Assembly: GCA_034434995.1 (NCBI GenBank)
Contig: DAOTYF010000020.1
Coordinates: 2,486 to 66,485, forward strand
Direction of reading: 5' to 3'
Source: Anaerolineae bacterium
Lineage (GTDB): Bacteria; Chloroflexota; Anaerolineae; Aggregatilineales; UBA3940
Length of the DNA: 64,000 nt
Of this stretch, positions 1,823 through 32,498 are shown one piece after another (position 1 is the first letter of the stretch; each line of letters starts with the position of its first letter). Under the pieces are notes generated by a model. That model was not told the origin of the DNA. It did no database searches and saw nothing but the letters and a program-made list of their open reading frames with translations. A program made the translations under genes and the position numbers.

Positions 1823-2800
1823 ATGAGCGACGAGATAAAACGCATTGCTGTAATGACCAGCGGCGGTGATTCGCCGGGCATGAATGCGGCAATCCGTGCG
1901 GTTGTCCGCGCGGGAGTCTTTCATAATCTGGAAATCTATGGGATTCGGAAGGCCTACGTTGGCCTGATTAACAGCGACTTTGAGCGCATGACGGCCCGCG
2001 ATGTAGGCGGCATCATCCAGCAGGGCGGAACGATTCTGCAAACAGCGCGTCTTCCTGAATTCCAGGACGAGGCGTTGCAACGCAAGGCTGTGCGCTGCCT
2101 GAACGAACAAGGCATCGATGGGCTGGTGGTCATTGGCGGCGATGGCAGCCTGGCGGGTGCGTTGGCCCTGCATAGGCATGGCGTAAAGGTCGTAGGCATT
2201 CCGGCCAGCATTGACAACGACATTTGGGGCACAGCTAGCTCCATCGGCGTCGATACGGCTGTCAATACCATCCTGGAGTCAATAGATCGCCTGCGGGATA
2301 CTGCCTCCTCCCATGAGCGTGTTTTCCTGGTCGAAGTGATGGGGCGCCGTTGTGGGCATCTTGCCATCGTGGCTGGGCTGGTTACCGGTGCGGAGGTTGT
2401 GCTGATTCCAGAACAGGAGACGACGCTGGAGGAGTTGGGCAGCGCACTGGAAGAGGCGTACATGAAGGGCAAGAGCCATGGCCTCGTGATCGTGGCAGAA
2501 GGGGCCAACCTGAAACTGCCTCAGATTGCGGACTACCTCAAGGATCACGATATTGGCTTCGAGGTGCGAATGACTATGCTGGGCCACGTCCAGCGGGGGG
2601 GACGTCCGACGGCTTTCGACAGATTGCTTGCCACCCGCTTCGGCGTGGAAGCGGTCGAAACTCTTCTGAAAGGCACACACGGCGTGATGACCGCCCTAGA
2701 AGGAATGGACATTGTAACGTTGCCGCTGGAAGAGGTGATCGGCAAGCAGCGCCCCGTCAATCCCCATTACATGGAGCTGGCCAAGATCCTTGCCAGGTAG
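1823..2800 (+). CDS. pfkA: ATP-dependent 6-phosphofructokinase
   Basis: MTSGGDSPGMNAAIRAVV, IGGDGSLAG, GIPASIDNDI and MGRRCGHLA are classical PfkA motifs. Length is 325 aa. Confidence 0.9.
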   Translation: MSDEIKRIAVMTSGGDSPGMNAAIRAVVRAGVFHNLEIYGIRKAYVGLINSDFERMTARDVGGIIQQGGTILQTARLPEFQDEALQRKAVRCLNEQGIDGLVVIGGDGSLAGALALHRHGVKVVGIPASIDNDIWGTASSIGVDTAVNTILESIDRLRDTASSHERVFLVEVMGRRCGHLAIVAGLVTGAEVVLIPEQETTLEELGSALEEAYMKGKSHGLVIVAEGANLKLPQIADYLKDHDIGFEVRMTMLGHVQRGGRPTAFDRLLATRFGVEAVETLLKGTHGVMTALEGMDIVTLPLEEVIGKQRPVNPHYMELAKILAR

Positions 2801-2890
2801 CTGCTTAAATTGAGGTACAATACTTTAGCCTATTGCCCGTCCTCAAACGGGCGTTTTTGCAGGTGAGCGTACTGGAGGAGCGAGTGACCG

Positions 2891-4045
2891 ATGAGGATCG
2901 GAGTCCTGACAGGCGGCGGCGATGTTCCCGGCCTGAATCCGTGCATCAAGGCGATTGTGGATCGCTGCGTGGAGGAAGGTCATACCGCGCTGGGAATCCG
3001 GCGAGGCTGGGCTGGCCTGCTTAACTATGATCTGACCACCGGTGAAGGCAACGACGAATGCATCATTGAGTTGGATAAGAACGCGGTGCGGCGCATCGCT
3101 CGCACCGGTGGCACTTTCTTGCATACCTCACGCACCAACCCGGCTAGCGTGAAGGGACGGGATGTGCCAGAGCATCTGCGCGACTCGGATTGGTCGCCCG
3201 ATCAGGAAGGGCGAGATTTTACCCCTCATGTGTTGAAGGTGATCGATGCAGTCGGGTTGAACGTCATTATCGCCATCGGGGGGGATGATACGCTCAGTTA
3301 TGCCGAGCGCCTGCACCGCGAGGGGGTATCCATTATGGGTATTCCCAAGACGATGGATAACGACGTATTTGGCACAGATTACTGCATCGGCTTCAGTACG
3401 GCAGTGACGCGCAGCGTAGACTTTATCAACAATCTTCGCACCAGTACCGGTTCTCACGAGCGCATCGCGGTGATCGAATTGTTTGGCCGCAACTCAGGTG
3501 AGACCTCGCTGATTGCAGCCTATCTTGCCGGGGTGGATCGGGCTATCATATCCGAGGTTCCATTTAACCCGGAGAAGCTGGCGCGCCTCCTTCAGGCCGA
3601 TAAGGCGGATAACCCCAGCAACTATGCTATGATGACCATCTCTGAAGGCGCGCGCATGGAAGAAGGCGAGATCGTCCAGCGCGGTGAGGCCGATGCCTAT
3701 GGGCATCAGAAGCTGGGTGGGATCGGCCTGATCACGGGGGAGATCATCAAGAAGCTGACCGGGGAGGACATTATCTACCAGCAGATCGCGTATCTGATGC
3801 GCTCTGGCGCACCCGATTCGCTCGATCTGATGGTGGCCTTCAACTATGCCCATATGGCCATGGATATGGTCATCAAGGGCCAAAGCGGTCGCATGGTGGC
3901 CTTGCGCGGTGGGGTGTATACAGACATTCCGATCAGCATGATCATGCAAGGGCGTAAGACAGTAGATGTAGGCGAGCTGTACGACATTGACCAGTACCGT
4001 CCTAAGGTCAGGCACGTGGCTGGTATGCCGATGTTTCTAAGCTAG
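2891..4045 (+). CDS. Phosphofructokinase family protein, probably PPi-dependent
   Basis: [26 protein letters not shown] has Asp where ATP-PFKs have the second Gly. [10 protein letters not shown] has Lys where ATP-PFKs have Gly. Length is 384 aa. Confidence 0.8.
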
Positions 4046-11003: not shown

Positions 11004-12890
11004 TTATAAGTGTTCCAGATTCTTCAACACCCGTTCGTCCCCCCTGCGCCGGGTGACTCCGGTTGCATCCAGGTGTTCGAGCAGGGCAATCGCGTATTTT
11101 CGGGTGGTGCCGAACAGATCGCGGGCCTGAGCCGCTGTGATCGATCCCTCACGCGCGATGAACTCCTCGATCTGGCGTCTCCAGTCGGCGTAGGTGTGCG
11201 CATCAAGGAGTACGTCGCTGCTAATTTGCACCAGATCGCCACGCTCGATCAGCGCCTGGAGCACATCCTCTCCTACAAGGCTGGCCGCTTCCTTCACGCT
11301 TGGCTGGGCATGGGGGTGGAGTTGGATTATCTCCCATAGTTGATCAATAGCCGCTTGCTCTGTGGCCGAGAATTGGACCCTATGGTCGGGCAGACGAATG
11401 ATCGTTCCCTGGTCCTGCACCATGCCCTTCTCGACGGCGAGAGCTATGAGCCGGTTAAACGATCTCATCTCCGCGCCGAGGCGGCTGCGTAAGGCTTCGC
11501 GGGGCATGCCAGAGTGCAGCCGATGCTGGGCATGATAAGCCGCCAATTCGTGGACGAGCCGGTCGGTGAGGCGGTTCCACACTGCGCGGGCCATCAGCCA
11601 ACCTTCGGGCAGGCACAGCAGATCACCGCGCGCCTCCAGCGCCTCAATGGCCCTGGCTACCTCCGGTGCGCTGAGGCCAGTAGCGGCCTGTAGCTGGTCG
11701 TGGGATAGAGCAGTCTGTTCATCAAGCACCTGCAGAAGCAAATCCTCTGGACTGCCTGCCGCCAGTGTTTGCAGGCGGGCCAAGACCTCCGGCTTAAAGC
11801 GTCGCCAGCGGTGTGCTGGGTGCGGATCGAGCACAATCCCCCCGCCAATAGTTCGCGGGGGGGATGGGCGGCGGAGGATAAAACGGTCGCCTTTGTCAAG
11901 CGCCACCGGATCGGTGAGCCTCAATTGCAACCACCCCTGTGCCCCTGGCGCAAGCTGGCGGTCGCCTAGGAGCCGGACATGGGCTATTGTCTCTGCCGAC
12001 CCGCAGAAGAACTTGACTTCGACGTTGTGCTCAAGCGGATGGCCTGCGTCGGCGAGGTGGCGGAAGGACACATCCACCAGCGTCGTCGCGGAGAGCACAC
12101 CGGGTGAAGCGACGACATCGCCACGTTGGATTTCATCGGTTGTCACACCACTCAGGTTGATAGCAACCCGGTTCCCCGGGCCGACAGTTGTGACGGTCTG
12201 CCTATAACTCTGTAGCCCCCTGATACGTGCCCGCTTCCCACCGGGCACGATCTCCACCTCATCGCCCAACGAAAAAGAGCCGCCGCCCAGCGTGCCAGTG
12301 ACGACGGTTCCGAAGCCGCTCATGGTGAAGACACGGTCAACCGGCAGTCGGGGCCGCCCGCGATCCGGACGCGGTGAATGTTCGGTCAGCGCCGAGTCCA
12401 GCGTAGCCAACAATTGATCCAGCCCTGCTCCTGTGCGAGCCGAGACGGGAATCATCGGTGCGCCTTCTAGCACCGTGCCCGCTACTACCTCGGCCAGTTC
12501 CAGTTGCACCAACTCCAGCCATTCCGGGTCAGTAATCAGGTCGATCTTGGTCAGGGCAATGATCCCGCTTGGGATGCCCAAGAGGTCGAGGATGGCTAAG
12601 TGTTCACGGGTTTGGGGCATCACCCCTTCATCGGCAGCGACGACGAACAGGGCCAGATCGATTCCGCCAACTCCGGCAAGCATATTCTCGATAAAGTCAT
12701 GATGGCCTGGGACATCTACGATGCCGACAGTTTCGCCCCGGGGCAACGTCAGCCAGGCAAAGCCGAGGTCAATGGTCATCTCGCGTGCCTTTTCCTCAGC
12801 TAGGCGGTCCGGGTCGATTCCGGTGAGCGCCCTGACCAGCGTGGACTTACCGTGATCAACGTGCCCGGCGGTACCGATGACGTAAGCCAT
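11004..12890 (-). CDS. selB: Selenocysteine-specific translation elongation factor SelB
   Basis: [63 protein letters not shown], and a long C-terminal winged-helix-like extension. Length is 628 aa. Confidence 0.9.
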
Positions 12891-12899
12891 GCGGTCACC

Positions 12900-14075
12900 T
12901 CATGACAGGGGGGGCAGGGAGCTATCCTCGGATTGCTCACGCAGGGATTGGATCATTGCGGTTAAGCCTCGCAAGGCGTCCTGCTGGGATGCCCTGAGAT
13001 TCTTGAGATGATCGGTCAACGCCTGAACCTGTTGCATCAGTTGGCGCATAGTGGACTGAAGATCGTCCATAGAGCGCTGGTGCTCACGGCGAGCCTCCTC
13101 AGCAGTCAGTGTGAATTGCCGCCAACGCTTCTGATCATCCTGTAAGAACTCCTCCCAATCCTTGCGGAAGCGCTCTTCTGACAGACGCTGAACCTCGGCC
13201 ACCTCGTTTAGACGGCGATCCATACGGTCAGCCAGGCGGTCAAAGTCGTCAACCTGTTTTTTCATGACCCGGTAGGTCGCTCCCCAGGTTTCAAACTGCT
13301 GAGCGTATTGGTCCATGTCCTCGGCGAAGGAGTCCATACGCCGGATGACCTCTGCCATAGCCTGCTCGCGTTGTTGAGCGGCTAGGGCTTCCTGTTCAGC
13401 CCAGGCCTGCCGCTGCTGCTTGAAGTCCCCCAGCTCGCCACTTATCTGTCCAACTGTCCGCTCGTTCCTGCGGCTTAGGTCTTCCAGCAGTTCCAGCTTG
13501 GCCTTGTGACTCTCCATCCGTTTGGTCAGCTCAATGATCTCACCGCTCATGTCTGAGATACGGCGGCTGTCCTGACGGCGTTGCTCCTCCAAGAAAGCGA
13601 GCGTGCGCTGGAACTCCTCCAACCCTTTGGTTAGATTAGTGGCATAGAGCTGAAGCTCATTAGCCACTCTCGAGAGACGTTCTTCCTCCGCGCGGCGCAG
13701 TTGAAGCTCGCGTTCGAGTCTGGCAATCATCTCTTGGCGCAGTTCATCCAGCGCCTTCATGACGCCCTCGCGGTCCACCTCGCGTAGTTTCTTGAAGTCC
13801 AGATCGCTCTGCTCGCGGCGGGCAACTGCGGATTCGACGAGAGCGGCGATTTCAGTTCGCAACCGGGCCACGGTCTCGTCGAAAGAGCTGATGCTTAGAG
13901 TTTTGCTTTGCAGGGACGCCAACCCCGTCTCCAGCGCATGAATACGCCTGCTCTGATCTTCTAGCAGGGCGGCCTGGGAGGCGACGCGCTCCTCCAGCTT
14001 GGTGATCAATGCTTTGTCTTTGCGCCGCTCTTCATCCAACCATGTGACCATCTGAGCGGTTTGCTTGGCTTCCAT
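12900..14075 (-). CDS. Coiled-coil protein of unknown function
   Basis: 391 aa with heptad-rich E/R/L/Q composition throughout. It ends 9 nt upstream of the selB start, so the two are likely co-transcribed. Confidence 0.6.
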   Translation of the reverse strand: MEAKQTAQMVTWLDEERRKDKALITKLEERVASQAALLEDQSRRIHALETGLASLQSKTLSISSFDETVARLRTEIAALVESAVARREQSDLDFKKLREVDREGVMKALDELRQEMIARLERELQLRRAEEERLSRVANELQLYATNLTKGLEEFQRTLAFLEEQRRQDSRRISDMSGEIIELTKRMESHKAKLELLEDLSRRNERTVGQISGELGDFKQQRQAWAEQEALAAQQREQAMAEVIRRMDSFAEDMDQYAQQFETWGATYRVMKKQVDDFDRLADRMDRRLNEVAEVQRLSEERFRKDWEEFLQDDQKRWRQFTLTAEEARREHQRSMDDLQSTMRQLMQQVQALTDHLKNLRASQQDALRGLTAMIQSLREQSEDSSLPPLS

Positions 14076-23094: not shown

Positions 23095-23238
23095 CAGGCT
23101 CCTCGATCCCCCAGTTCCTGCGATAACGACAATCTAAGCCCATAGCTGCAACCTTACTATGATGTAGGTCATACTGGCTGTGCTTTTACGCTTGCGCCGG
23201 TTTGCTCTTATTTTCACAATAAGGATGAATCCGGTGAA

Positions 23239-23256
23239 ATATGACGCAAATCATAT
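23239..23256 (+). promoter_or_regulatory. Candidate CRP/FNR-family binding site upstream of the oxidase cluster
   Basis: ATATGA-cgcaaa-TCATAT is an 18-bp perfect palindrome with the TGA-N6-TCA core of CRP/FNR boxes. TAGAAT at 23277-23282 is a candidate -10 hexamer 20 nt downstream. Confidence 0.4.
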
Positions 23257-23377: not shown

Positions 23378-23536
23378 ATGGCAACTGACCAGGAGAAGGG
23401 AGAAGAGCAACCCATCCCACGGGGTCAGATTCTCTTTGATCGATGGTTCCTGTTATTCGCGCTCTCGCTTATTCTCAGCCTCGTCTTTTACAATGCCTGG
23501 GATCTGCTGGAACTGATCTCATTGCCGACGAGATAG
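23378..23536 (+). CDS. Small single-TM protein (52 aa), candidate oxidase subunit IIa-like; absent from the ORF track
   Basis: GAAGGAGG lies 7 nt before the ATG. Translation is MATDQEKGEEQPIPRGQILFDRWFLLFALSLILSLVFYNAWDLLELISLPTR, with one hydrophobic helix. It sits directly upstream of subunit II, as in the Thermus cbaD-cbaB-cbaA order. Confidence 0.5.
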   Translation: MATDQEKGEEQPIPRGQILFDRWFLLFALSLILSLVFYNAWDLLELISLPTR

Positions 23537-23570
23537 CACCGGTAGATCAGACTGGGGAAAGGGGTGCCTC

Positions 23571-24101
23571 ATGCTTGCTCCGCCAAGGAACTGGTGGAAA
23601 CCACTCGGACGTCAAGAGCGCAACTGGCTGCTTGTGGCGTTTGTGTGGTGCATTTTCATGACGGCTATGATGCCACTATGGTTCTTCTTTGGTCGCCAGA
23701 ACGTCCCGGCCACCACCTATCGCGTTGCGCCGGAGAGTTTCGTCGCTGAGGTGAACGCCTTCGTTGAGCAATATCAGATCGGCGAGGAGCAGCTCGGATC
23801 GACGACGCTGCCCGTGGTGGCCCCACCGCCTGGTGACGTTTTCCTGTTGGCACGTCAGTTCCAGTGGTATCCGATCCTCCAGTTGGAACGCGGCCAGACA
23901 TACCAGCTTCATCTCTCGTCCGCCGATGTGAGTCATGGCTTCTCGCTCCAGCCCACCAATCTTAACCTGATGGTGTTGCCGGGGTATGACTATGTTGTGA
24001 CCCTGACCCCTACCGAGAGCGGCGAGTTTTCTGTAGTCTGCAATGAATACTGCTTCTACGGCCACCACCTGATGGTCGGCAAGATCATCGTCCAAGACTA
24101 G
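23571..24101 (+). CDS. Haem-copper oxidase subunit II (single TM plus cupredoxin with a complete CuA site)
   Basis: H122 (VSHGF) and C157-N-E-Y-C161-FYG-H165-HL-M168 (24039-24074) match H..CxExCx3Hx2M. At 176 aa with one N-terminal TM it resembles ba3-type subunit II. Confidence 0.9.
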   Translation: MLAPPRNWWKPLGRQERNWLLVAFVWCIFMTAMMPLWFFFGRQNVPATTYRVAPESFVAEVNAFVEQYQIGEEQLGSTTLPVVAPPPGDVFLLARQFQWYPILQLERGQTYQLHLSSADVSHGFSLQPTNLNLMVLPGYDYVVTLTPTESGEFSVVCNEYCFYGHHLMVGKIIVQD

Positions 24102-24129
24102 TGGCCTCTTAGTTAAGGAGGAAAATAAC

Positions 24130-25866
24130 GTGGCTGTTGGAGCAATCCCCATGGGGAAGCAAGTGGCAGGGTTTGAATCGCGTACCTGCCCGGTCACCCG
24201 CTACGTGGTCGATCTGGCCTCTGAGCGGCTGATCATTGTCAATGCGGTGTCAGCGATAGTCTTCCTGCTGATTGGTGGCATCATTGCGCTGCTGCTGGCG
24301 CTGACACGGTGGCAGGCCATTCACCTGTTGCCATCGGTCTGGTACTATCGCCTAGTGACAGCGCATGGCATCAGCATGTTGGTGGCCTGGATTGTGTTCT
24401 TTGAGGTTGCCGGGCTGTATTTCGGCAGCACGGTGATGTTGAATGCGCGGCATGTAAGCCCTGGGTTGGGCTGGGTCGCATGGGTGCTGATGGCGGTCGG
24501 GGGCCTGATGGCCGCCTTCGCCGTGCTGCTTGGCCCTCTCGTTGGGCTAGAACCATCGGATGTGATGTTCACGGCTTATGTGCCTCTCAAGGCGCATCCG
24601 TTGTTTTATCTCGGTGTGGTGCTGTTTGCTGTCGGCGCACTGATCGCCGTAGGGCTGTTCTTTGCCAATCTGGTCGTTGCCCGCAGGGAGCGTCGCTACG
24701 AAGGCTCCCTGCCACTGGTTGTCTACGGCCTGTTGACGGCAGCGATCATCGCCACTTATACGCTGTTGCAGGGGGCGATAGCCTTCGTCCCGGCACTGCT
24801 GTGGTCACTCAATTTGCTGCCGAGCTACGACCCCGCGGTGTACCGTAACTTCTTCTGGGGCTTTGGCCATCCTGCGCAGCAGATCAATCTGGCGGCGATG
24901 GTGGCAGTGTGGTATGCGCTGGCATCGATCACCACCGGTGCGGCCCCCCTCAATGAAAAACTGTCACGGCTTGCGTTCATCCTGTACCTGTTCTTCATCA
25001 ACCTGGGATCAGCTCACCATCTGCTGGTTGATCCGGGGCCGGGCTTCGTCTGGAAAGTATTCAACACGTCCTATGGGATGTACTTGGCCGTGCTAGGCAG
25101 CCTGATCCACGCCTTCTCGATCCCGGCAGCGCTGGAGGTGGCTCTGCGGAAGAAGGGCTTCAATCGCGGCTTATTCGAGTGGCTGCGAAAGGGCCCCTGG
25201 CGCGAGCCAGGCTTTGCAGCCCTGGTGATCTCCATGTTTATCTTCGGCTGGATTGGCGGTGTGACGGGCGTCACGATGGGCACCGAGCAGATCAACATGA
25301 TCCAGCACAACACGCTGCGCGTGCCCGGCCATTTCCACGCGACCGTTGTCTCTGGCACGACTATCGCCTTTATGGGGTTGACTTACTATCTGATCCCGCT
25401 GATCTTCCGCCGCGAACTGAAATTCAAGAATCTAGCAACCTGGCAACCCTACATCTATGGGGCGGGTATGGTGCTGGTCTCATTGGGAATGATCACTGCC
25501 GGGATCCAGGGTGTGCCCCGCCGCCACTGGGACATCGGCTTTGCGCTGGCAGGCGGACCGTCAGTCTTCCCCGGCACGGTGAACCTGTCGCTGGCTGTGC
25601 TTGGCCTTGGTGCGATCATCGCCGTGACAGGGGGGGCGATGTTCATGATTGTGGTGCTCAGCTCGGTGTTATTCGGCACGAAGCGTGAGGCCAGCTCGCT
25701 GATGCTGGTGGCGACCGACCGCGAGCCGACTCTGATCGCAGCGGTGGAGGATGATCACCCAGCACCAAGGGGAGCATTTGCCCTGGTGATCATCTTCCTG
25801 ATCTACTTCGTGACCTTCTACCTGGCGAATTGGTGGCTCCTAGGCCGTGCCTGGGGCGTTGGCTAG
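24130..25866 (+). CDS. Haem-copper oxidase subunit I, B-family-like, cross-link Tyr replaced by Gln
   Basis: It aligns by eye to Thermus ba3 CbaA (YVPLKAHPLFYLG, DPGPGF, HNTLRVPGHFHATV). All six metal His residues are present (H79, H247, H296, H297, H401, H403). GHPIVY of ba3 reads GHPAQQ here. The RBS AAGGAGG precedes the GTG at 24130. Confidence 0.9.
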   Translation: MAVGAIPMGKQVAGFESRTCPVTRYVVDLASERLIIVNAVSAIVFLLIGGIIALLLALTRWQAIHLLPSVWYYRLVTAHGISMLVAWIVFFEVAGLYFGSTVMLNARHVSPGLGWVAWVLMAVGGLMAAFAVLLGPLVGLEPSDVMFTAYVPLKAHPLFYLGVVLFAVGALIAVGLFFANLVVARRERRYEGSLPLVVYGLLTAAIIATYTLLQGAIAFVPALLWSLNLLPSYDPAVYRNFFWGFGHPAQQINLAAMVAVWYALASITTGAAPLNEKLSRLAFILYLFFINLGSAHHLLVDPGPGFVWKVFNTSYGMYLAVLGSLIHAFSIPAALEVALRKKGFNRGLFEWLRKGPWREPGFAALVISMFIFGWIGGVTGVTMGTEQINMIQHNTLRVPGHFHATVVSGTTIAFMGLTYYLIPLIFRRELKFKNLATWQPYIYGAGMVLVSLGMITAGIQGVPRRHWDIGFALAGGPSVFPGTVNLSLAVLGLGAIIAVTGGAMFMIVVLSSVLFGTKREASSLMLVATDREPTLIAAVEDDHPAPRGAFALVIIFLIYFVTFYLANWWLLGRAWGVG

Positions 25867-25881
25867 CTGCATTCGATGTGT

Positions 25882-25911
25882 AGGGGGGCGAGGGCATAGC
25901 TTTGCCCCCCT
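25882..25911 (+). other. GC-rich hairpin between subunit I and ctaB
   Basis: AGGGGGGC-14 nt-GCCCCCCT forms an 8-bp G/C stem with no U-tract. It could be a processing or stability element. Confidence 0.35.
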
Positions 25912-25943
25912 GCCAAGCTGAGACTGACACAGGGGGGCCATCA

Positions 25944-26846
25944 ATGGAAAGCACTCGGAGCCACCTTCTCACCACCGCCACCTGGCCTCGACTTGTGGGC
26001 GAGTTAAAAGCGCTGCTTAGCCTGACCAAACCCGGCGTCACTGCGCTACTGGTCTTCACTGCCGTGACGACGGCATGGGCAGCGAGCGGCCCCTGGGTGT
26101 CGGCGGAGCGATTGCTGACGCTGGCGCTGAGCGGGGGCTTGATGGCTGGCGGAGCCGCCACGCTCAACCAGTACCTCGAACGCCACCTCGATGCACGGAT
26201 GCCTCGCACGGGGCGTCGCGCTCTGCCCTCGGGTCGGCTTAGTTCGCCGTGGATAGCGCTGTGGTGGGGAATCCTGCTTTGCGCGGCCAGCCTGTTCGTC
26301 TCGTTTCATTCCCTACCGCCGACGGCGACGTTCTTCATCCTACTAGGGTTAGTAGTCTATGTGCCTCTCTACACCCTGATCCTCAAGCAGACTACGCCGA
26401 TGAATGTCGTGATCGGCGGGTTCGCCGGGTGCTGTCCCGTGCTAGCAGGTTGGGCCGCTGTCCGCGCTGATTGGCCGCTGACCCCGTTCGCGTTGGCTGC
26501 GCTGATCTTCTTCTGGACGCCCGCCCACTTCTGGGCTTACGCGCTCGTTCACAGGGAAGGATATCGCCAAGCAGGAATCCCCATGCTGCCCGTCCAGGCC
26601 GGGTACAGGGGTGCGACTCCTTATATCTTTGCCCATAGCATGATGATGGTCGCCGCATCGGCCCTGGCTTTGCATGGGTTGGCGTTGATCGTTGCGCTGG
26701 TATGGGGGTTGGGATTCCTGGCTCAGTCCATGGACCTGTGGCGCAATCCGCATCCGCGCAAGGCATATCGCCTGTATCGGGTCTCAAACTACTACCTACT
26801 CACCGTCTTCTTCAGCATGACAGTGGGGGCGGTGCTGGGGATATAG
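25944..26846 (+). CDS. ctaB: Protohaem IX farnesyltransferase (haem O synthase)
   Basis: LTKPGVTALLVFTA, NQYLERHLDARMPRTGRRALPSG (UbiA D-rich motif region), FFWTPAHFWA. I prefer the ATG at 25944, which follows AGGGGGG, over the TTG at 25902. Confidence 0.9.
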   Translation: MESTRSHLLTTATWPRLVGELKALLSLTKPGVTALLVFTAVTTAWAASGPWVSAERLLTLALSGGLMAGGAATLNQYLERHLDARMPRTGRRALPSGRLSSPWIALWWGILLCAASLFVSFHSLPPTATFFILLGLVVYVPLYTLILKQTTPMNVVIGGFAGCCPVLAGWAAVRADWPLTPFALAALIFFWTPAHFWAYALVHREGYRQAGIPMLPVQAGYRGATPYIFAHSMMMVAASALALHGLALIVALVWGLGFLAQSMDLWRNPHPRKAYRLYRVSNYYLLTVFFSMTVGAVLGI

Positions 26847-26850
26847 GGCT

Positions 26851-27597
26851 ATGGAGCATGGATCCCATCTATCAGCGGCGGGCATGCCTGCGGTCCTAGC
26901 GGCCTTTTTGTTTGGGCTGCTAGGTAGCCTAGGACATTGTGCCTCGATGTGCGGCGCGCTCCAGGTTGTGCTCAGCCGCCGAGGATTAACCTCCGGCTGG
27001 CGGCTGCCAGCCATGCACGCCGGGCGCATTACTACCTACAGCCTATTGGGGCTGTTGGGTGGGGCGACAAGTGCGGCTATAGCTAACTGGTTCCCTGCCC
27101 TGGTAACCGTGCAAGGAATCTTTGCGCTGTTGTTCGCTCTGTTGGCAGGCTACTTCACCCTGTCGCTGTTGGGGATCGCTCCCCCAGCAGAGGTGTTGCT
27201 GTCCAACCTGACTCGCCGCTGGGGCCAAGCTGTGCGTCGCCTGACTCAGGCTGAGCCGGTGGCCCGGAGTTTCCCTGCCCTGCCAATCACAGTGGCGTTT
27301 GGCTTACTATGGGGGTTGCTGCCCTGCGGTCTGGTGATCGCGGCCCTCCTCACTGCCTTTACCAGCAATTCTGCATGGGGTGGTGCAGTGGCCATGCTGG
27401 CCTTTGGAATAGGGACATGGCCCGCCCTGCTGGTCGTTCACTGGCTGGGGGGGCGTGACGTGTCTGTGCTCGCCTGCTGGGCTCGCCCGGCCACAGCGCT
27501 GGTGATGCTGCTGTTTGGTGTGCAGATGGCCCTACGCGGTTTCGCGGCATGGGGCTGGGTCGGGCACTTTGAAGTCGGGGGGGTGATGGTGTGGTAG
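26851..27597 (+). CDS. DsbD_2/TauE-like membrane protein with HCxxMC motif
   Basis: LLGSLGHCASMCGAL near the N-terminus and about six hydrophobic helices. Family members are commonly adjacent to CcoI-type ATPases. The family assignment is from memory. Confidence 0.65.
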   Translation: MEHGSHLSAAGMPAVLAAFLFGLLGSLGHCASMCGALQVVLSRRGLTSGWRLPAMHAGRITTYSLLGLLGGATSAAIANWFPALVTVQGIFALLFALLAGYFTLSLLGIAPPAEVLLSNLTRRWGQAVRRLTQAEPVARSFPALPITVAFGLLWGLLPCGLVIAALLTAFTSNSAWGGAVAMLAFGIGTWPALLVVHWLGGRDVSVLACWARPATALVMLLFGVQMALRGFAAWGWVGHFEVGGVMVW

Positions 27598-29954
27598 CCC
27601 CCGTTGCAACACTGGGCTGTGCGCTGTGCGGGCTAACTGTTACACATCCCCTGACCAATGCGGCGGGGGATATCTTTTGCTGTCCGGCCTGCCGCGAGGT
27701 TCATAGCCTGCTCCAAACAACGGCAAACGCCCCCTCCAAAGCCCACGCTGCTGGGTCTGAGCGGGAAATCGCTGGGGTGGAACTTTCCCTCGGCGGGCTG
27801 TGGTGCGCCTCCTGCGCGTGGCTGATTGGTGAGACGCTTCAGCGCACGCACGGCGTCCAAAGCGCCGAGGTCAGCTTCGCTCGGCGCGAGGCGCGCGTCA
27901 CCTACGATCCGTCGCAGGTCGATCCACGGCGCCTGGCGCGGCGTATCCGGCGACTTGGCTACCGGGCTTGGCCAGCGGGTGAGAGGGCCGATTACGACGA
28001 AGAGGAGCGCCACGCCGATCTGCTACTTATCACGGGCGTCATTGCGGCCCACGATCTGATCATCAGCCTCTTTCTGTATATCTGGCAATATGTCGCGGGC
28101 GCGCCACAAGATACTGCCTGGCTGGCGACCTTCTTCCATTCGGTCCTGCTGGTAGGTGGTATACCGATGATACTGCTGCTGGGTCTGCCGATCCTCCGCG
28201 CCGGGATCGCCAGCCTGCTCACAGGCCGCCCAAACATGCACGCGCTGATCGCGCTGGGCGCGTTTTCGGCATTCGCGCTCTCGGTGCGGAACTTTCTTCT
28301 GGGCCATGGCCATCTCTATTTCGACACTGCTTCGATGCTGCTTTACCTAGTGGCTGTCGGGCGCTGGTTAGAGATTCGTGCCCAGAAGCAAAGCAATGAA
28401 GCTGTGGAGCGTCTGTTGAAGCAACTCCCCGATGAGGCAACCTGGTTGACACCGGAGGGGGAACAGCGGGTTCCGGTGGAACGCCTGCCAGCCGGAGCGC
28501 GCATCCTGGTGCGCCCCGGCGAACGCTTCCCCGTTGATGGGCTGATCGCCGTCGGTGAGGGTGATGTAGATGAGAGCCTGCTCACCGGCGAGCCAATCCC
28601 TGTGATGCGACGCCCCGGCGAGCAGGTGTTGGCGGGGACGATCAACGTGGATGGCGGCTTTGAGATCATCACCACGGCTGTCGGAGCCAGCACGGCTGCC
28701 GGACAGATCGGCAGGCTGCTGCACCAGGCCCTTTGGGAGCGCACGCCGATCCAACAGTTAGCCGACCGATTGGCGGGGTGGATGGTGCCCATCGCGGTGT
28801 TGATCGCCGCCGGGACGTTCACCTTCTGGGCAGCCCAATCTGGTGTGGAAACCGGCCTGATGAACGCGCTCTCGGTGCTGCTGATCGCCTGCCCATGTGC
28901 GCTGGGCCTGGCAACGCCGCTTACATTGTGGCTAGGCATTGGGCGGGCTGCTGAAGGCGGAGCCATTCTCCGTAGCAGCAGCGCACTAGAGCGCCTGGCG
29001 CAGGTCAGGCGGGTCTACTTTGATAAGACTGGCACGCTGACCCAACGGGAGTTCCGTGTGCAGTACATTCTCTCGCCAGGTATGGATACGGATGTGTTCC
29101 TGGCGTTCGTTGCCGCTGCTGAGGTTCGCTCCGAGCACCCATTTGGGAAAGCAGTGGTTGAAGCAGCACAGAGACGCGGGCTGGCTCTTGCAGATGCAGA
29201 AGGCTTCCACGCCATTCCAGGGCACGGCGTCAGCGCGCGGCTAGGCGAACTGCTCGTTATGGTCGGCAGCGGGCGTCTCATGGCGGATCGTGGACTGGTG
29301 ACGATGCCCGCGCTTGCCAATGCCGCTATGGACTGGCAGGCCGAGGGCTTATCCGTCATATATGCAGGCTGGGATGGGCAAGTACGGGGCTTGTTGGGGT
29401 TGGGTGAAGAGGCTCGTCCTATGGCGGACGGCGCAGTCGCTGACCTGCGCAGGTTGGGGCTGGATGTCTCTGTGCTGACAGGGGATGATGCCGCTGCGGG
29501 GGAGCGCTGGGCGCAGCGCTTGAACGTCCCGGTTTACGCAGAACTGCTCCCGGAGGATAAGATTCGGCATCTGAAGGAAAGTTCTCGCCCAGTAGCCATG
29601 GTTGGTGATGGGATCAACGATGGCCCTGCGCTGGCAGCGGCCCATGTCGGGATCGCGCTCAGCCACGGCACTGATGTGGCCCGCGCGGCGGCGGATGCCG
29701 TCCTCCTGGGCGATGATCTCCGTGCCGTTCCCTGGCTGATCCGACTGAGTCGTGCTGCCATGCACCGCGTCCGTCAGAACCTGGCATGGGCATTCGTCTA
29801 TAATTTGATCGGACTGGGGTTGGCAGCGACCGGACACCTGTGGCCGGTATTGTCTGCGCTTGCAATGGTGCTCAGCAGCGTCTTTGTCACAGGCAACGCA
29901 CTCCGATTGCGCCGGTTCCCTCTCTTCTCTGAAAATGGTAGTTCACCGAGCTGA
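27591..29954 (+). CDS. Copper-translocating P1B-type ATPase, CcoI/FixI-like
   Basis: N-terminal CALCG..FCCPACREVH (CcoI-type metal-binding domain), HMA-like GGLWCASCAWLIGETL, the TM CPC motif LIACPCALGLATP, DKTGTLT and GDGINDGPAL. The start overlaps the upstream stop (GTGGTAG). Confidence 0.9.
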   Translation: MVAPVATLGCALCGLTVTHPLTNAAGDIFCCPACREVHSLLQTTANAPSKAHAAGSEREIAGVELSLGGLWCASCAWLIGETLQRTHGVQSAEVSFARREARVTYDPSQVDPRRLARRIRRLGYRAWPAGERADYDEEERHADLLLITGVIAAHDLIISLFLYIWQYVAGAPQDTAWLATFFHSVLLVGGIPMILLLGLPILRAGIASLLTGRPNMHALIALGAFSAFALSVRNFLLGHGHLYFDTASMLLYLVAVGRWLEIRAQKQSNEAVERLLKQLPDEATWLTPEGEQRVPVERLPAGARILVRPGERFPVDGLIAVGEGDVDESLLTGEPIPVMRRPGEQVLAGTINVDGGFEIITTAVGASTAAGQIGRLLHQALWERTPIQQLADRLAGWMVPIAVLIAAGTFTFWAAQSGVETGLMNALSVLLIACPCALGLATPLTLWLGIGRAAEGGAILRSSSALERLAQVRRVYFDKTGTLTQREFRVQYILSPGMDTDVFLAFVAAAEVRSEHPFGKAVVEAAQRRGLALADAEGFHAIPGHGVSARLGELLVMVGSGRLMADRGLVTMPALANAAMDWQAEGLSVIYAGWDGQVRGLLGLGEEARPMADGAVADLRRLGLDVSVLTGDDAAAGERWAQRLNVPVYAELLPEDKIRHLKESSRPVAMVGDGINDGPALAAAHVGIALSHGTDVARAAADAVLLGDDLRAVPWLIRLSRAAMHRVRQNLAWAFVYNLIGLGLAATGHLWPVLSALAMVLSSVFVTGNALRLRRFPLFSENGSSPS

Positions 29955-29960
29955 TTTCTG

Positions 29961-32069
29961 ATGTTTAAGCCATCTTACTACAGCAACCGCCGCCTTCTCA
30001 GGGCACTGGAGGGACTCTGGTCGCGCTTTGAGGGAATGCTGGATCGTCTCTCCAGCACGGCACAAGGGGATGCCAAACCCCGCCTTAACTTCAACCCTTT
30101 TTATCATCTGGGCACGCTATCGATCCTCTTGCTGATCGTCCTGCTGGTGACGGGGGTGTACCTCACGGTTGTCTATAAGCCCGGGCCTCTGCGCGCCTAT
30201 GCCTCGCTGGAACTGATCAGTGCCTCCTGGATCGGCTCTCTTATTCGCAGCATCCACCGCTACGCCTCAGATGCTTTGATCGTTGTGCTGGTGTTGCACG
30301 CGCTCAAGATGCTGCTCAGTGACCGCTTCTGGGGGGGACGCTGGTTGGCCTGGGTATCGGGCATGGTGTTGGTGCTGCTGATCCTGGTTATTGGGGCAAT
30401 GGGTTACTTCCTGGTCTGGGATCAGCAGGGGCAATGGTTAGGGGAATACTTTATCAACTTCTTGGGTGGGGATATCCCGTTCACCTTTTCCTCTCCAGCG
30501 GCAGTATCGGGCGCGTTCCAGTTCTTCGTGATCATTCTGTTCCTGCACATCTTTCTTTCGCTGATCATCGCGGCTGGAATCTGGATTCATGAGATGCGCC
30601 TCCAACGGGCGAAGGTCTGGGCGCCGCGTTGGCTGATGATCACCACGCTCGTAGCGCTGGCGATCCTGGCGCTTGCCTGGCCCGTCCGCAGCGGCCCACC
30701 TGCCGACCTGAGCACCTTGGTAACTACAGTCCGATTGGACTGGCTGTATCTTGGCTTCCTGCCGCTGTCCCGCCAGTTTGGATCGGCAACGGTGTGGATC
30801 GTGTCTGGAGTGGTTGTTGTCAGTGTTAGCGCACTGCCGTGGCTGGCGCGCGGGAGGCACCACGGCCCCGCTCTTGTGACGGAGGAACTGTGTACCGGGT
30901 GTGCAGTGTGTGCCCGCGAATGCCCTTATGATGCGCTGTCGGTCGTGCCGCGCGTGATTGACGACCGTTACGAGTCCTCGGTCGCGGTCAACGCGGCCCT
31001 GTGTACCGGATGTGGTCTGTGCGTGGGTGACTGCGCTACGATTGGCATCGAACTGCCAGAACTTCGCACTGAGCAGATCGTAGCTGATCTGCGGCAGGCT
31101 CTTGCCAGTGCGCAGGGCCAATCCCCGGTGGTGGTGTTCGCCTGTCAGCGGCACACCACCTTGGGGACGCTGCCGGTCGGCGCTCATCAAGAATCTGCCA
31201 TCGGCGCAGCGGCGGGACGATCCGCCCATCAAACGGTCACACTCGCCACGTTGGGGGTGGGCAACCCGGAGCCGGCGGTTCCGCTGATCACCTGCACCGT
31301 GCCTTGTGCCGGGATGACCCAGTCGAAGTGGATTCGGGGGTGTCTCTCCCATGGCGCACGTGCGGTAGTGCTCCTGACCTGCCCTGCCGACGACTGTGGC
31401 TTCCGCGAGGGGCCGCGCTGGCTGATCGGGCGACTGAGCCGGGGGCGTAATGCCAACCTGCTCGGCAATCGCGTCCACTGGCTGGAAGCTGCGCCGGGTG
31501 ATCGTGGGGGGTTCAGGCGGCTGTTCGAGTCACTGGTCAGCGAGGGAGAGAATCGAAAGGAGTTCCCCGCCAGAGGGCTGCCGACACCCATCTCCTTTGC
31601 CGGGGGATTCGTCCTTCTGCTGCTGACCCTCGCCATGGCACTGTTAGCTGACTGGCCCGCTGTTGCCTGGGCCACCGATCAGGGGGCCATTCGTATTGTT
31701 TTGAGCCACACATCGGATATCATGGCTGCTACGCTGGGCATCAATACCGACTCGCAGAACCTGCCGGAAGGTGTGACACCGGAACAGGTTCTCGGCGGCG
31801 CGCGTTACCCGGTGCGCTTGCGGGTCGAGATCGATGGCGAGGTCGTTGGCGAATGGACATACCAGGCCAGCGGCCTGCATCACGAGGGAGCCGCTTATGG
31901 GCTGGAAACGCTGTGGCGGGACCCTGGCACCTATCCGCTTACCATCTTCATGATGGATGACGGTGAGCACTGGCGCGAGGTGTTTGCAGGTGATATTGTA
32001 GTTGAGACTGCTAGGGTGAGCGTACTGACCTATGATAGTGAGCAGGATGCCTTCATCCTGAACCAATAG
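29961..32069 (+). CDS. Fusion protein: bc-type cytochrome b (helices A-F), 2x[4Fe-4S] ferredoxin, MvhD/FlpD-like domain, TM helix and an unknown C-terminal domain
   Basis: The cytochrome b part has LVTGVYL, SLIRSIHRYASDALIVVLVLHALK (H99-x13-H113), GYFLVWDQQGQW and FLHIFLSLIIAAGIWIH (H196-x13-H210). Ferredoxin motifs are CTGCAVCARECP and CTGCGLCVGDCA (about 30873-31055). The MvhD-like part has VVVFACQRH..CTVPCAGMTQSKWIRGCLSHGARAVVLLTCPADDCGFREG (about 31122-31445). A TM helix at residues ~545-570 is followed by a ~130-aa tail. Confidence 0.85.
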   Translation: MFKPSYYSNRRLLRALEGLWSRFEGMLDRLSSTAQGDAKPRLNFNPFYHLGTLSILLLIVLLVTGVYLTVVYKPGPLRAYASLELISASWIGSLIRSIHRYASDALIVVLVLHALKMLLSDRFWGGRWLAWVSGMVLVLLILVIGAMGYFLVWDQQGQWLGEYFINFLGGDIPFTFSSPAAVSGAFQFFVIILFLHIFLSLIIAAGIWIHEMRLQRAKVWAPRWLMITTLVALAILALAWPVRSGPPADLSTLVTTVRLDWLYLGFLPLSRQFGSATVWIVSGVVVVSVSALPWLARGRHHGPALVTEELCTGCAVCARECPYDALSVVPRVIDDRYESSVAVNAALCTGCGLCVGDCATIGIELPELRTEQIVADLRQALASAQGQSPVVVFACQRHTTLGTLPVGAHQESAIGAAAGRSAHQTVTLATLGVGNPEPAVPLITCTVPCAGMTQSKWIRGCLSHGARAVVLLTCPADDCGFREGPRWLIGRLSRGRNANLLGNRVHWLEAAPGDRGGFRRLFESLVSEGENRKEFPARGLPTPISFAGGFVLLLLTLAMALLADWPAVAWATDQGAIRIVLSHTSDIMAATLGINTDSQNLPEGVTPEQVLGGARYPVRLRVEIDGEVVGEWTYQASGLHHEGAAYGLETLWRDPGTYPLTIFMMDDGEHWREVFAGDIVVETARVSVLTYDSEQDAFILNQ

Positions 32070-32096
32070 CATCCTACGGTAAAAGGAGAGAGTTCA

Positions 32097-32498
32097 ATGT
32101 TGTCGTTTTGGCGCAGATGGGCCTGGATCGCGACGGCTATCCTGGTGGGGTTGGCGTTAGCGGCCTGTGGCAATGGCGGCAGTGAGTCCGCCATCGGTGA
32201 TCCGGCTCAGGGCCGTCAGATCTACGAAACAGGTGGAGCCAGCGGAGTTCCTTGCCTGACGTGCCACACGCTCGACGGATCTGCGCTGGTTGGCCCCTCC
32301 TTTCAGGGTATTGCCGGGCGCGCCGGGACTCGTGTCGAGGGCTTGAGTGCGGAGGAATATCTCAGGCAATCCATTCTGGAACCGACTGCCTATGTGGTTG
32401 AGGGATTTGAGCCAACAATGCCCGAAACCTACGCGGATACGCTGTCTGAAGACGATATTAACAACGTCATTGCATTTCTGCTGTCGCTGCCGGACTGA
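32097..32498 (+). CDS. Lipoprotein class-I c-type cytochrome
   Basis: Signal peptide plus lipobox LALAAC, haem motif CLTCH (32253-32267), and distal Met candidate in EPTMPE. Length is 133 aa. Confidence 0.85.
   Translation: MLSFWRRWAWIATAILVGLALAACGNGGSESAIGDPAQGRQIYETGGASGVPCLTCHTLDGSALVGPSFQGIAGRAGTRVEGLSAEEYLRQSILEPTAYVVEGFEPTMPETYADTLSEDDINNVIAFLLSLPD

Follow-up and report, generated by a model that had tools for sequence, protein, structure and literature searches.

Within the haem-copper oxidoreductases, the residue found at the position of the cross-linked active-site Tyr differs between families: it is Tyr in the oxygen reductases, Gln in eNOR, Glu in cNOR and qNOR, and Asn in sNOR (PMC8756737, section 2.7.1 and Table A4, after Hemp & Gennis 2008). 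The eNOR family was defined in 2008 (Hemp & Gennis), and eNOR, sNOR, gNOR, and nNOR are described as relatives of the B family that carry CuA-type subunits (Murali et al. 2024, PMC11214002). The eNOR purified from R. marinus reduces nitric oxide (NO), with a kcat of 0.68 per s at 25 C, and does not reduce O2; it has haem As in both haem sites, and the K-channel of eNORs is B-like and conserved, including a Ser equivalent to ba3 S309 (PMC11214002). Reports of eNOR in Chloroflexi date from 2015 and cover Ardenticatena maritima (PMC4653789) as well as Anaerolineales and other Chloroflexi (PMC8756737). In Ferrigenium, the operon consists of eNOR II, eNOR I, haem o synthase, sco1, and a scaffold gene, together with cytochrome b/[Fe-S] proteins (10.64898/2026.01.22.701106). 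Here we analyzed a 64-kb stretch of DNA from a Chloroflexota bacterium (contig DAOTYF010000020.1; hereafter “the window”, meaning the whole stretch), with a focus on the gene for subunit I of a haem-copper oxidoreductase at positions 24130-25866 and the operon around it. In our view, the genes at 23378-32498 very likely form the operon of an eNOR-type nitric oxide reductase. This reading combines the sequence features, clade membership, and operon that we observed, together with a linkage to nirS in relatives, with the NO-reductase activity published for the family.

The preliminary description of this DNA had taken the protein for a B-like subunit I related to Thermus ba3 with all six metal-binding His retained, and the searches bore this out. 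The protein matched Pfam COX1 (1.4e-66), and its nearest solved relatives were T. thermophilus ba3 subunit I (E ~1e-43) and the Aquifex structure 7deg, with A-family oxidases far weaker in the same sequence search of solved structures. All six ligand positions (H79, H247, H296, H297, H401, and H403) are His and align to ba3 H72, H233, H282, H283, H384, and H386, respectively. The NCBIfam matches of subunit I were generic (CtaD, SoxB, and QoxB), all below the family cut-offs. An AlphaFold 2 model (pLDDT 81, pTM 0.86) has 13 transmembrane helices, and its top fold matches in the PDB were ba3 chains (TM-score 0.73-0.75), followed by 7deg and then by A-family oxidases; the top 50 structural matches included no NOR structure. 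Since the sequence and structure searches of the PDB returned no relative nearer than ba3, it seems that no structure of the eNOR family has been solved so far.

One departure from ba3 lies near the first non-haem metal ligand. Around this His, the HMMER alignment is gap-free (Anaerolineae protein FWGFGHPAQQIN versus ba3 FWWTGHPIVYFW, where the ba3 stretch reads FWW(T)GHPIVYFW) and sets Gln251 on Y237. The codon is CAG (24880-24882), and the alignment places no Tyr at this position, in agreement with the preliminary description. With Tyr237 replaced by Gln251, the enzyme would be without the His-Tyr cofactor that is needed for four-electron O2 reduction. We compared the protein with its 120 best homologues (65-73% identity), which come from metagenome-assembled genomes of Anaerolineae, Caldilineae, and Ardenticatenia, and with five distant ones obtained by searching plasmids and a set of 1.84 billion cluster representatives. 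Because position 251 is Gln in all 120 close homologues and in the five distant ones (125/125 of the clade), it is no sequencing error or one-off. Further residues set this group apart. W61, Q251, I290, Y315, A320, V321, V381, and F426 occur in every sequence of the Gln clade but in neither the Tyr-bearing relatives nor the B family. I290 and N291 (24997-25002), which occupy the sixth and fifth positions before the HH pair (HH-6 and HH-5), are specific to the eNOR clade, with N291 nearly invariant there. Q250, Q251, N253, I290, N291, and Y315 are kept clade-wide, including in the Thermus, alphaproteobacterial, and haloarchaeal members.

Outside Chloroflexota, identity of the Anaerolineae protein to clade members is 39-52%. 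The distant full-length relatives with the GHxxQQ(I/V)N motif are a haloarchaeal protein from Natrarchaeobius (P0125, 39%), a metagenomic one (P0122, 52%), and proteins encoded on megaplasmids in Thermomicrobium roseum (51%), in several strains of Thermus thermophilus (48%), and in a Defluviimonas sp. (47.5%); the plasmid search gave no Rhodothermus homologue. A protein search seeded with the Defluviimonas homologue gave matches of at least 80% identity, of which the named ones were all alphaproteobacterial and mostly Rhodobacterales. These taxa (Halobacteria, Thermus, Thermomicrobium, Proteobacteria, and Chloroflexi) agree with the published distribution of eNOR. Next closest are Tyr-bearing GHxxQY(I/V)N sequences, namely P0124 (Hodarchaeales), P0128 (Thermoproteota), and P0126 at 41-46% identity, and P0141 at 33%. 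In a Kimura-distance neighbour-joining tree, which is rough and not maximum likelihood and leaves out the recognised eNOR references (R. marinus, M. magnetotacticum, A. maritima, and SURF MAG 42), the Gln-bearing sequences formed one clade in 91 of 100 bootstraps, beside the Tyr-bearing “QY” sequences and well apart from the B family. Such a placement is in keeping with the FIND preprint (10.1101/592808), in which eNOR and a K family of O2 reductases are said to cluster, and the QY sisters are probably that K family.

The membership in NO-reductase-like families that had been proposed initially is thus narrowed by the Gln signature to eNOR, and the suggestion that the substrate may be NO rather than O2 gains support by analogy with R. 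marinus eNOR, which reduces NO and not O2 (PMC11214002). The accompanying remark that such families are poorly characterised needs correcting, as the R. marinus enzyme has already been purified and its activity measured (PMC11214002). Other assignments were tried and rejected. The protein carries Gln in place of the Tyr of the B-family GHPxVY motif and falls outside the B-family cluster of the tree, which argues against a B-family O2 reductase; sNOR and bNOR were discarded because residue 251 is Gln and not Asn. In gNOR, one metal-site His is replaced by Asp and subunit II lacks the CuA ligands (PMC11214002), whereas the present enzyme retains the three His of the metal site and the complete CuA ligand set. 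The nNOR family has Glu at the Tyr position as a fourth ligand and His/Met ligation of the low-spin haem (PMC11214002); the present protein lacks this Glu, which cNOR and qNOR also have, and its low-spin haem ligands are two His (H79/H403).

Some distant homologues differed at their metal sites. The Thermus homologue on the T. thermophilus SNM6-6 plasmid (L083, 11986-13671), which is annotated as a cbb3-type oxidase subunit, has Lys at the position of H403, the second low-spin haem ligand, and this fits the His/Lys ligation of the low-spin haem described for some eNORs (PMC11214002). Two further groups of distant homologues (P0174, P0181, P0221, and P0248 versus P0208, P0244, P0250, P0253, and P0260) have altered metal sites, one with FHxxHY and YH instead of HH, the other with GHxxQ(Y/F) and without the HH pair.

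The partner subunit and the proton path also follow the B-family pattern. Subunit II, whose CuA site was already recognised in the preliminary description, has the full ligand set (H122, C157, E159, C161, H165, and M168), invariant in 60 of 60 homologues save for a single Asp at E159, a backbone ligand. NCBIfam gave weak CoxB and NosZ CuA-domain matches. The His-to-Cys spacing is the same as in what we take to be the ba3 sequence. Directly 5' of subunit II, a small open reading frame encodes a 52-aa protein that tblastn also found in 48 of 80 related loci, and Thermus, Thermomicrobium, and Defluviimonas have a similar small open reading frame in the same place. The 52-aa protein is possibly a small third subunit, akin to IIa of ba3. 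Within subunit I, S324 and H327 are invariant and S330 is S, T, or A among homologues; together with Y262 (ba3 Y248) and N275 (ba3 S261), these residues are predicted from the alignment to form a polar path like the B-family proton channel.

Taken against described systems, the locus resembles the eNOR family in the Gln at the cross-link position, the three non-haem metal His, the CuA subunit II, the kinship with the B family, the polar residues of a K-channel-like path (among them the Ser at the position of ba3 S309), and the occurrence in Chloroflexi. Its operon shares with eNOR operons the haem o synthase, copper-delivery genes, and a cytochrome b/[Fe-S] gene, and relatives show linkage to nirS or nirK; it differs in that it is known from genes alone and that ctaA is not adjacent. 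The closest solved structure, ba3 (PDB 1EHK and 1XME; ~29% identity), likewise has 13 transmembrane helices, the same six His, a one-helix CuA subunit II, a single K-type proton channel, and, in subunit IIa, a possible equivalent of the 52-aa protein, whereas Tyr237, Val236, Trp239, and Thr312 of ba3 are replaced by Gln251, Gln250, Asn253, and His327, respectively. The QY sisters share Q250, N253, Y262, Y286, S324, and H327 with the Anaerolineae protein but have Tyr at 251, Val at 291, and I, L, or V at 315. The cNOR and qNOR enzymes (e.g., P. aeruginosa cNOR) belong to the same superfamily and also have a residue other than Tyr four positions after the first metal-site His; there, however, it is a Glu that ligates FeB, a cytochrome c subunit or fused domain replaces CuA, and no cytoplasmic proton channel is conserved.

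We then compared gene neighbourhoods in a scan with one genome per species, which found relatives in at least 553 genomes; the locus counts given here refer to the best 80 loci (63-73% identity), nearly all from Chloroflexota metagenome-assembled genomes. Subunit II lies beside the oxidoreductase genes in 79 of the 80, and the DsbD_2 protein, the Cu-ATPase, and the cytochrome b fusion are near them in about 67, 60, and 53 loci, respectively. Less frequent neighbours are a Crp/Fnr regulator (13/80), the cd1 nitrite reductase gene nirS (10/80), ctaA (at least 8/80), and a NirK-like gene (two loci besides the 10 with nirS). Among the loci with nirS are those most closely related to the present one (L006, L070, L076, L081, and L049), and the gene order is often nirS, subunit II, subunit I. 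The core of small protein, subunit II, and subunit I also occurs in Thermus, Thermomicrobium, and Defluviimonas. It is followed by haem o synthase in Thermomicrobium (fused to CtaA) and Defluviimonas, the latter adding an SCO protein and a cytochrome b/Fer4/FlpD protein, while the neighbours on the Thermus megaplasmid (L083) are a NirK-like multicopper protein, cytochrome P460, an Rrf2 regulator, and a ScdA_N protein. Where Ferrigenium and Defluviimonas have Sco1/SCO, the operon studied here has the Cu-ATPase and the DsbD_2 protein, and Chloroflexota loci in general carry this pair in place of the SCO copper chaperone of proteobacterial operons.

All genes of the operon (23378-32498) are on the + strand, in the order 52-aa protein, subunit II, subunit I, ctaB, DsbD_2 protein, Cu-ATPase, cytochrome b fusion, and cytochrome c (Table 1). 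From subunit II through subunit I, haem o synthase, and the copper-handling genes to the cytochrome b/[Fe-S] protein, this order agrees with the Ferrigenium eNOR operon (10.64898/2026.01.22.701106) and with the Defluviimonas locus. For subunit I, public gene calls on metagenome contigs start at ATG 24151 and give a 571-aa product that is 100% identical to P0001, a database protein from metagenome contigs of up to 175 kb. An AGGAGG, similar to a Shine-Dalgarno sequence, lies 9 nt 5' of GTG 24130, which favours the longer 578-aa form, and a start at that GTG is thus plausible. The ctaB assignment, an adjacency that the preliminary description had given correctly along with the absence of ctaA from the window, rests on TIGR01473 (236 bits against a cutoff of 210) and on NF003349 (241 bits, just below its 246-bit cutoff). 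As mechanically called, the DsbD_2 and Cu-ATPase reading frames overlap by 7 nt; the public call starts the ATPase later, at ~27777. The DsbD_2 protein probably has a role in cofactor or copper handling. The C-terminal ~200 aa of the cytochrome b fusion had no family match, and the same architecture lies 3' of the homologous genes on the alphaproteobacterial Defluviimonas plasmid; this protein may be an electron-input module, and the 133-aa cytochrome c that ends the operon is a likely electron donor to CuA.

Table 1. Positions of the features of the probable eNOR-type operon and of its subunit I in the 64-kb window
Feature	Position	Strand	Basis or remark
Palindrome TATGA-N6-TCATA, copy 1	23158..23173	.	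Perfect; intergenic, 5' of operon
Palindrome TATGA-N6-TCATA, copy 2	23240..23255	.	Perfect; intergenic, 5' of operon
52-aa single-helix membrane protein	23378..23536	+	Translation; gene call on public contigs
Subunit II, 176 aa: one transmembrane helix and cupredoxin domain with CuA site	23571..24101	+	Ligands, homologues
Subunit I of haem-copper oxidoreductase, eNOR type	24130..25866	+	578 aa; Pfam, ba3 alignment, His ligands, tree, AlphaFold 2 model
Helix VI motif H247-P-A-Q250-Q251	24868..24882	+	H247, first non-haem metal ligand; Q251 replaces cross-linked Tyr
Helix VII stretch Y286...I290-N291...H296-H297	24985..25020	+	H296/H297, metal ligands
Y315, start of helix VIII	25072..25074	+	Y in 125/125 of Gln clade; helix bounds from AlphaFold 2 model
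Helix VIII S324, H327, S330 (ba3 K-channel positions S309, T312, T315)	25099..25119	+	Alignment
ctaB / haem O synthase	25902..26846	+	NCBIfam, Pfam UbiA; public call starts 25944
DsbD_2-family membrane protein	26851..27597	+	Pfam PF13386, 6.8e-35
P1B-type copper-transporting ATPase	27591..29954	+	Pfam HMA, E1-E2_ATPase, Hydrolase; CPC motif in translation
Fusion, 702 aa: cytochrome b N-terminal domain, two [4Fe-4S] motifs, FlpD/MvhD-like domain	29961..32069	+	Pfam
Monohaem cytochrome c, 133 aa, CLTCH, lipoprotein-type signal (LAAC)	32097..32498	+	Pfam Cytochrom_C, Cytochrome_CBB3; public gene call

Upstream of the operon, the motif TATGA-N6-TCATA has two matches in the 64-kb window against 0.02 expected, both in the intergenic region 5' of the operon, and the identical metagenome contigs L001 and L002 carry the two copies as well. 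Their half-sites resemble Crp/Fnr-family boxes, which makes the palindromes candidate Crp/Fnr-type operators. We do not propose a conserved regulon: a relaxed TGA-N6-TCA motif was only about twofold enriched 5' of subunit II among 79 related loci, and AT-rich intergenic DNA could explain this. Elsewhere in the window, a gene for SelB, the selenocysteine-specific elongation factor, lies at 11004-12890 (-) and adjoins a 391-aa open reading frame (12900-14075) without a Pfam match, and 1823-4045 holds a tandem pair of phosphofructokinase-family genes (325 aa and 384 aa). Scans for tRNAs and Rfam families gave no matches in the window.

Mechanistically, the membrane-anchored cytochrome c is the most likely source of the electrons that would reach CuA of subunit II, and this cytochrome could in turn be fed from quinol via the cytochrome b/Fe-S fusion protein. 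From CuA the electrons would pass to the low-spin haem (H79, H403) and on to the high-spin haem (H401) and the non-haem metal (H247, H296, H297). There, by analogy with the characterised family member, two NO would be converted to N2O and water, a two-electron reduction that should need no His-Tyr radical cofactor, with Q251 in place of the Tyr and N291 as a putative further family-specific change in the pocket. Protons would probably come from the cytoplasm through the B-family-like K-channel (S324, H327, S330, Y262, and N275), in which case NO reduction would be electrogenic. The Cu-ATPase and the DsbD_2 protein probably insert copper, at least for CuA. CtaB would make haem O, and use of haem A or As would require that the genome carries ctaA outside the window. 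How electrons and protons travel, which metal fills the non-haem site, and which haem type this organism uses are all inferred.

Several points weigh against the assignment as an eNOR-type NO reductase operon or limit its reach. The likeness to the R. marinus and M. magnetotacticum eNORs rests on published descriptions, and the identity of the eNOR non-haem metal is not established in the literature consulted; the presence of a conserved Cu-ATPase fails to tell Cu from Fe at that site. In addition, the eNOR-specific, invariant Y315 would lie near the level of the metal ligands, as the first residue of helix VIII at approximately the membrane depth of H296/H297 in the AlphaFold 2 model. This bears on whether the enzyme might still be an O2 reductase in which a relocated Tyr (Y286 or Y315) serves as the radical or cross-link donor, as a helix VII Tyr does in the C family, an explanation that we judge most improbable. 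It would draw on the invariance of both residues in the clade and on the fact that Y315, unlike Y286, is confined to the Gln clade among the groups compared (I, L, or V in Tyr-bearing relatives and N, F, L, or I in the B family) and co-occurs with loss of the canonical Tyr. The preliminary description had proposed Y286 as a possible alternative donor: it does stand 10 residues before H296 (HH-10), but it is equally invariant in the Tyr-bearing QY relatives (the B family has F, I, or L there), so it predates the loss of the catalytic Tyr and did not arise as its replacement, and a role as substitute donor is unlikely from the alignment. Its position also differs from that of the relocated Tyr of the C family (cbb3), which lies at HH-6, occupied by I290 here. 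Moreover, nirS is linked in close relatives, models of NOR families gave no evidence of tyrosine migration (Murali et al., PMC11214002), and R. marinus eNOR has no O2-reductase activity (PMC11214002).

A substrate other than NO is highly unlikely in our view. Such an enzyme could be envisaged if the R. marinus result were not transferable to the Chloroflexota branch, given that the NO-reductase activity is known from R. marinus and not from members of this branch and that identity to clade members outside Chloroflexota is as low as noted above; yet the six residues around the active site that are kept across the whole clade, and the nirS linkage inside the Chloroflexota branch itself, speak for a common function. 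The physiological role is a separate matter. No nirS, nirK, nosZ, or ctaA was found in the 64-kb window, so respiratory denitrification by the organism is unproven, and it is possible, although we doubt it, that the eNOR-type NO reductase scavenges or detoxifies NO from neighbours or side reactions at low oxygen instead of serving the organism's own denitrification. Consistent with this role, which has been raised for eNOR (PMC8756737; 10.64898/2026.01.22.701106), genes for nitrate, nitrite, or N2O reductases are missing from the window, and a nitrite reductase gene lies within 10 kb in only 12 of the 80 related loci. On the other hand, the dedicated electron-input module and the proton channel suggest a respiratory, energy-conserving enzyme, and the window covers 64 kb, with the remaining genome unseen. 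Going beyond the eNOR-type assignment, and as a speculation to which we give little weight, the set that Chloroflexota keep together (the Cu-ATPase, the DsbD_2 protein, the cytochrome b/[4Fe-4S]/FlpD fusion, and the lipoprotein cytochrome c besides the eNOR subunits) might form a self-contained quinol-to-NO respiratory chain that works without bc1 or alternative complex III; separately, Tyr315 and Asn291 might be previously undescribed functional parts of the active site.

Overall, the protein is very likely a member of the described eNOR family, which had already been reported in Chloroflexi, and it brings no enzymology beyond that of Murali et al. 2024. Its main importance lies in annotation: one reading of the gene suggests aerobic respiration, and the correct one points to Chloroflexota (in this case most likely Anaerolineae) as organisms that reduce NO and produce N2O. 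Chloroflexota are abundant in sediments, hot springs, and wastewater plants, and our finding of relatives in the genomes of at least 553 species lends support to the published view of eNOR as a common N2O source that is under-counted.

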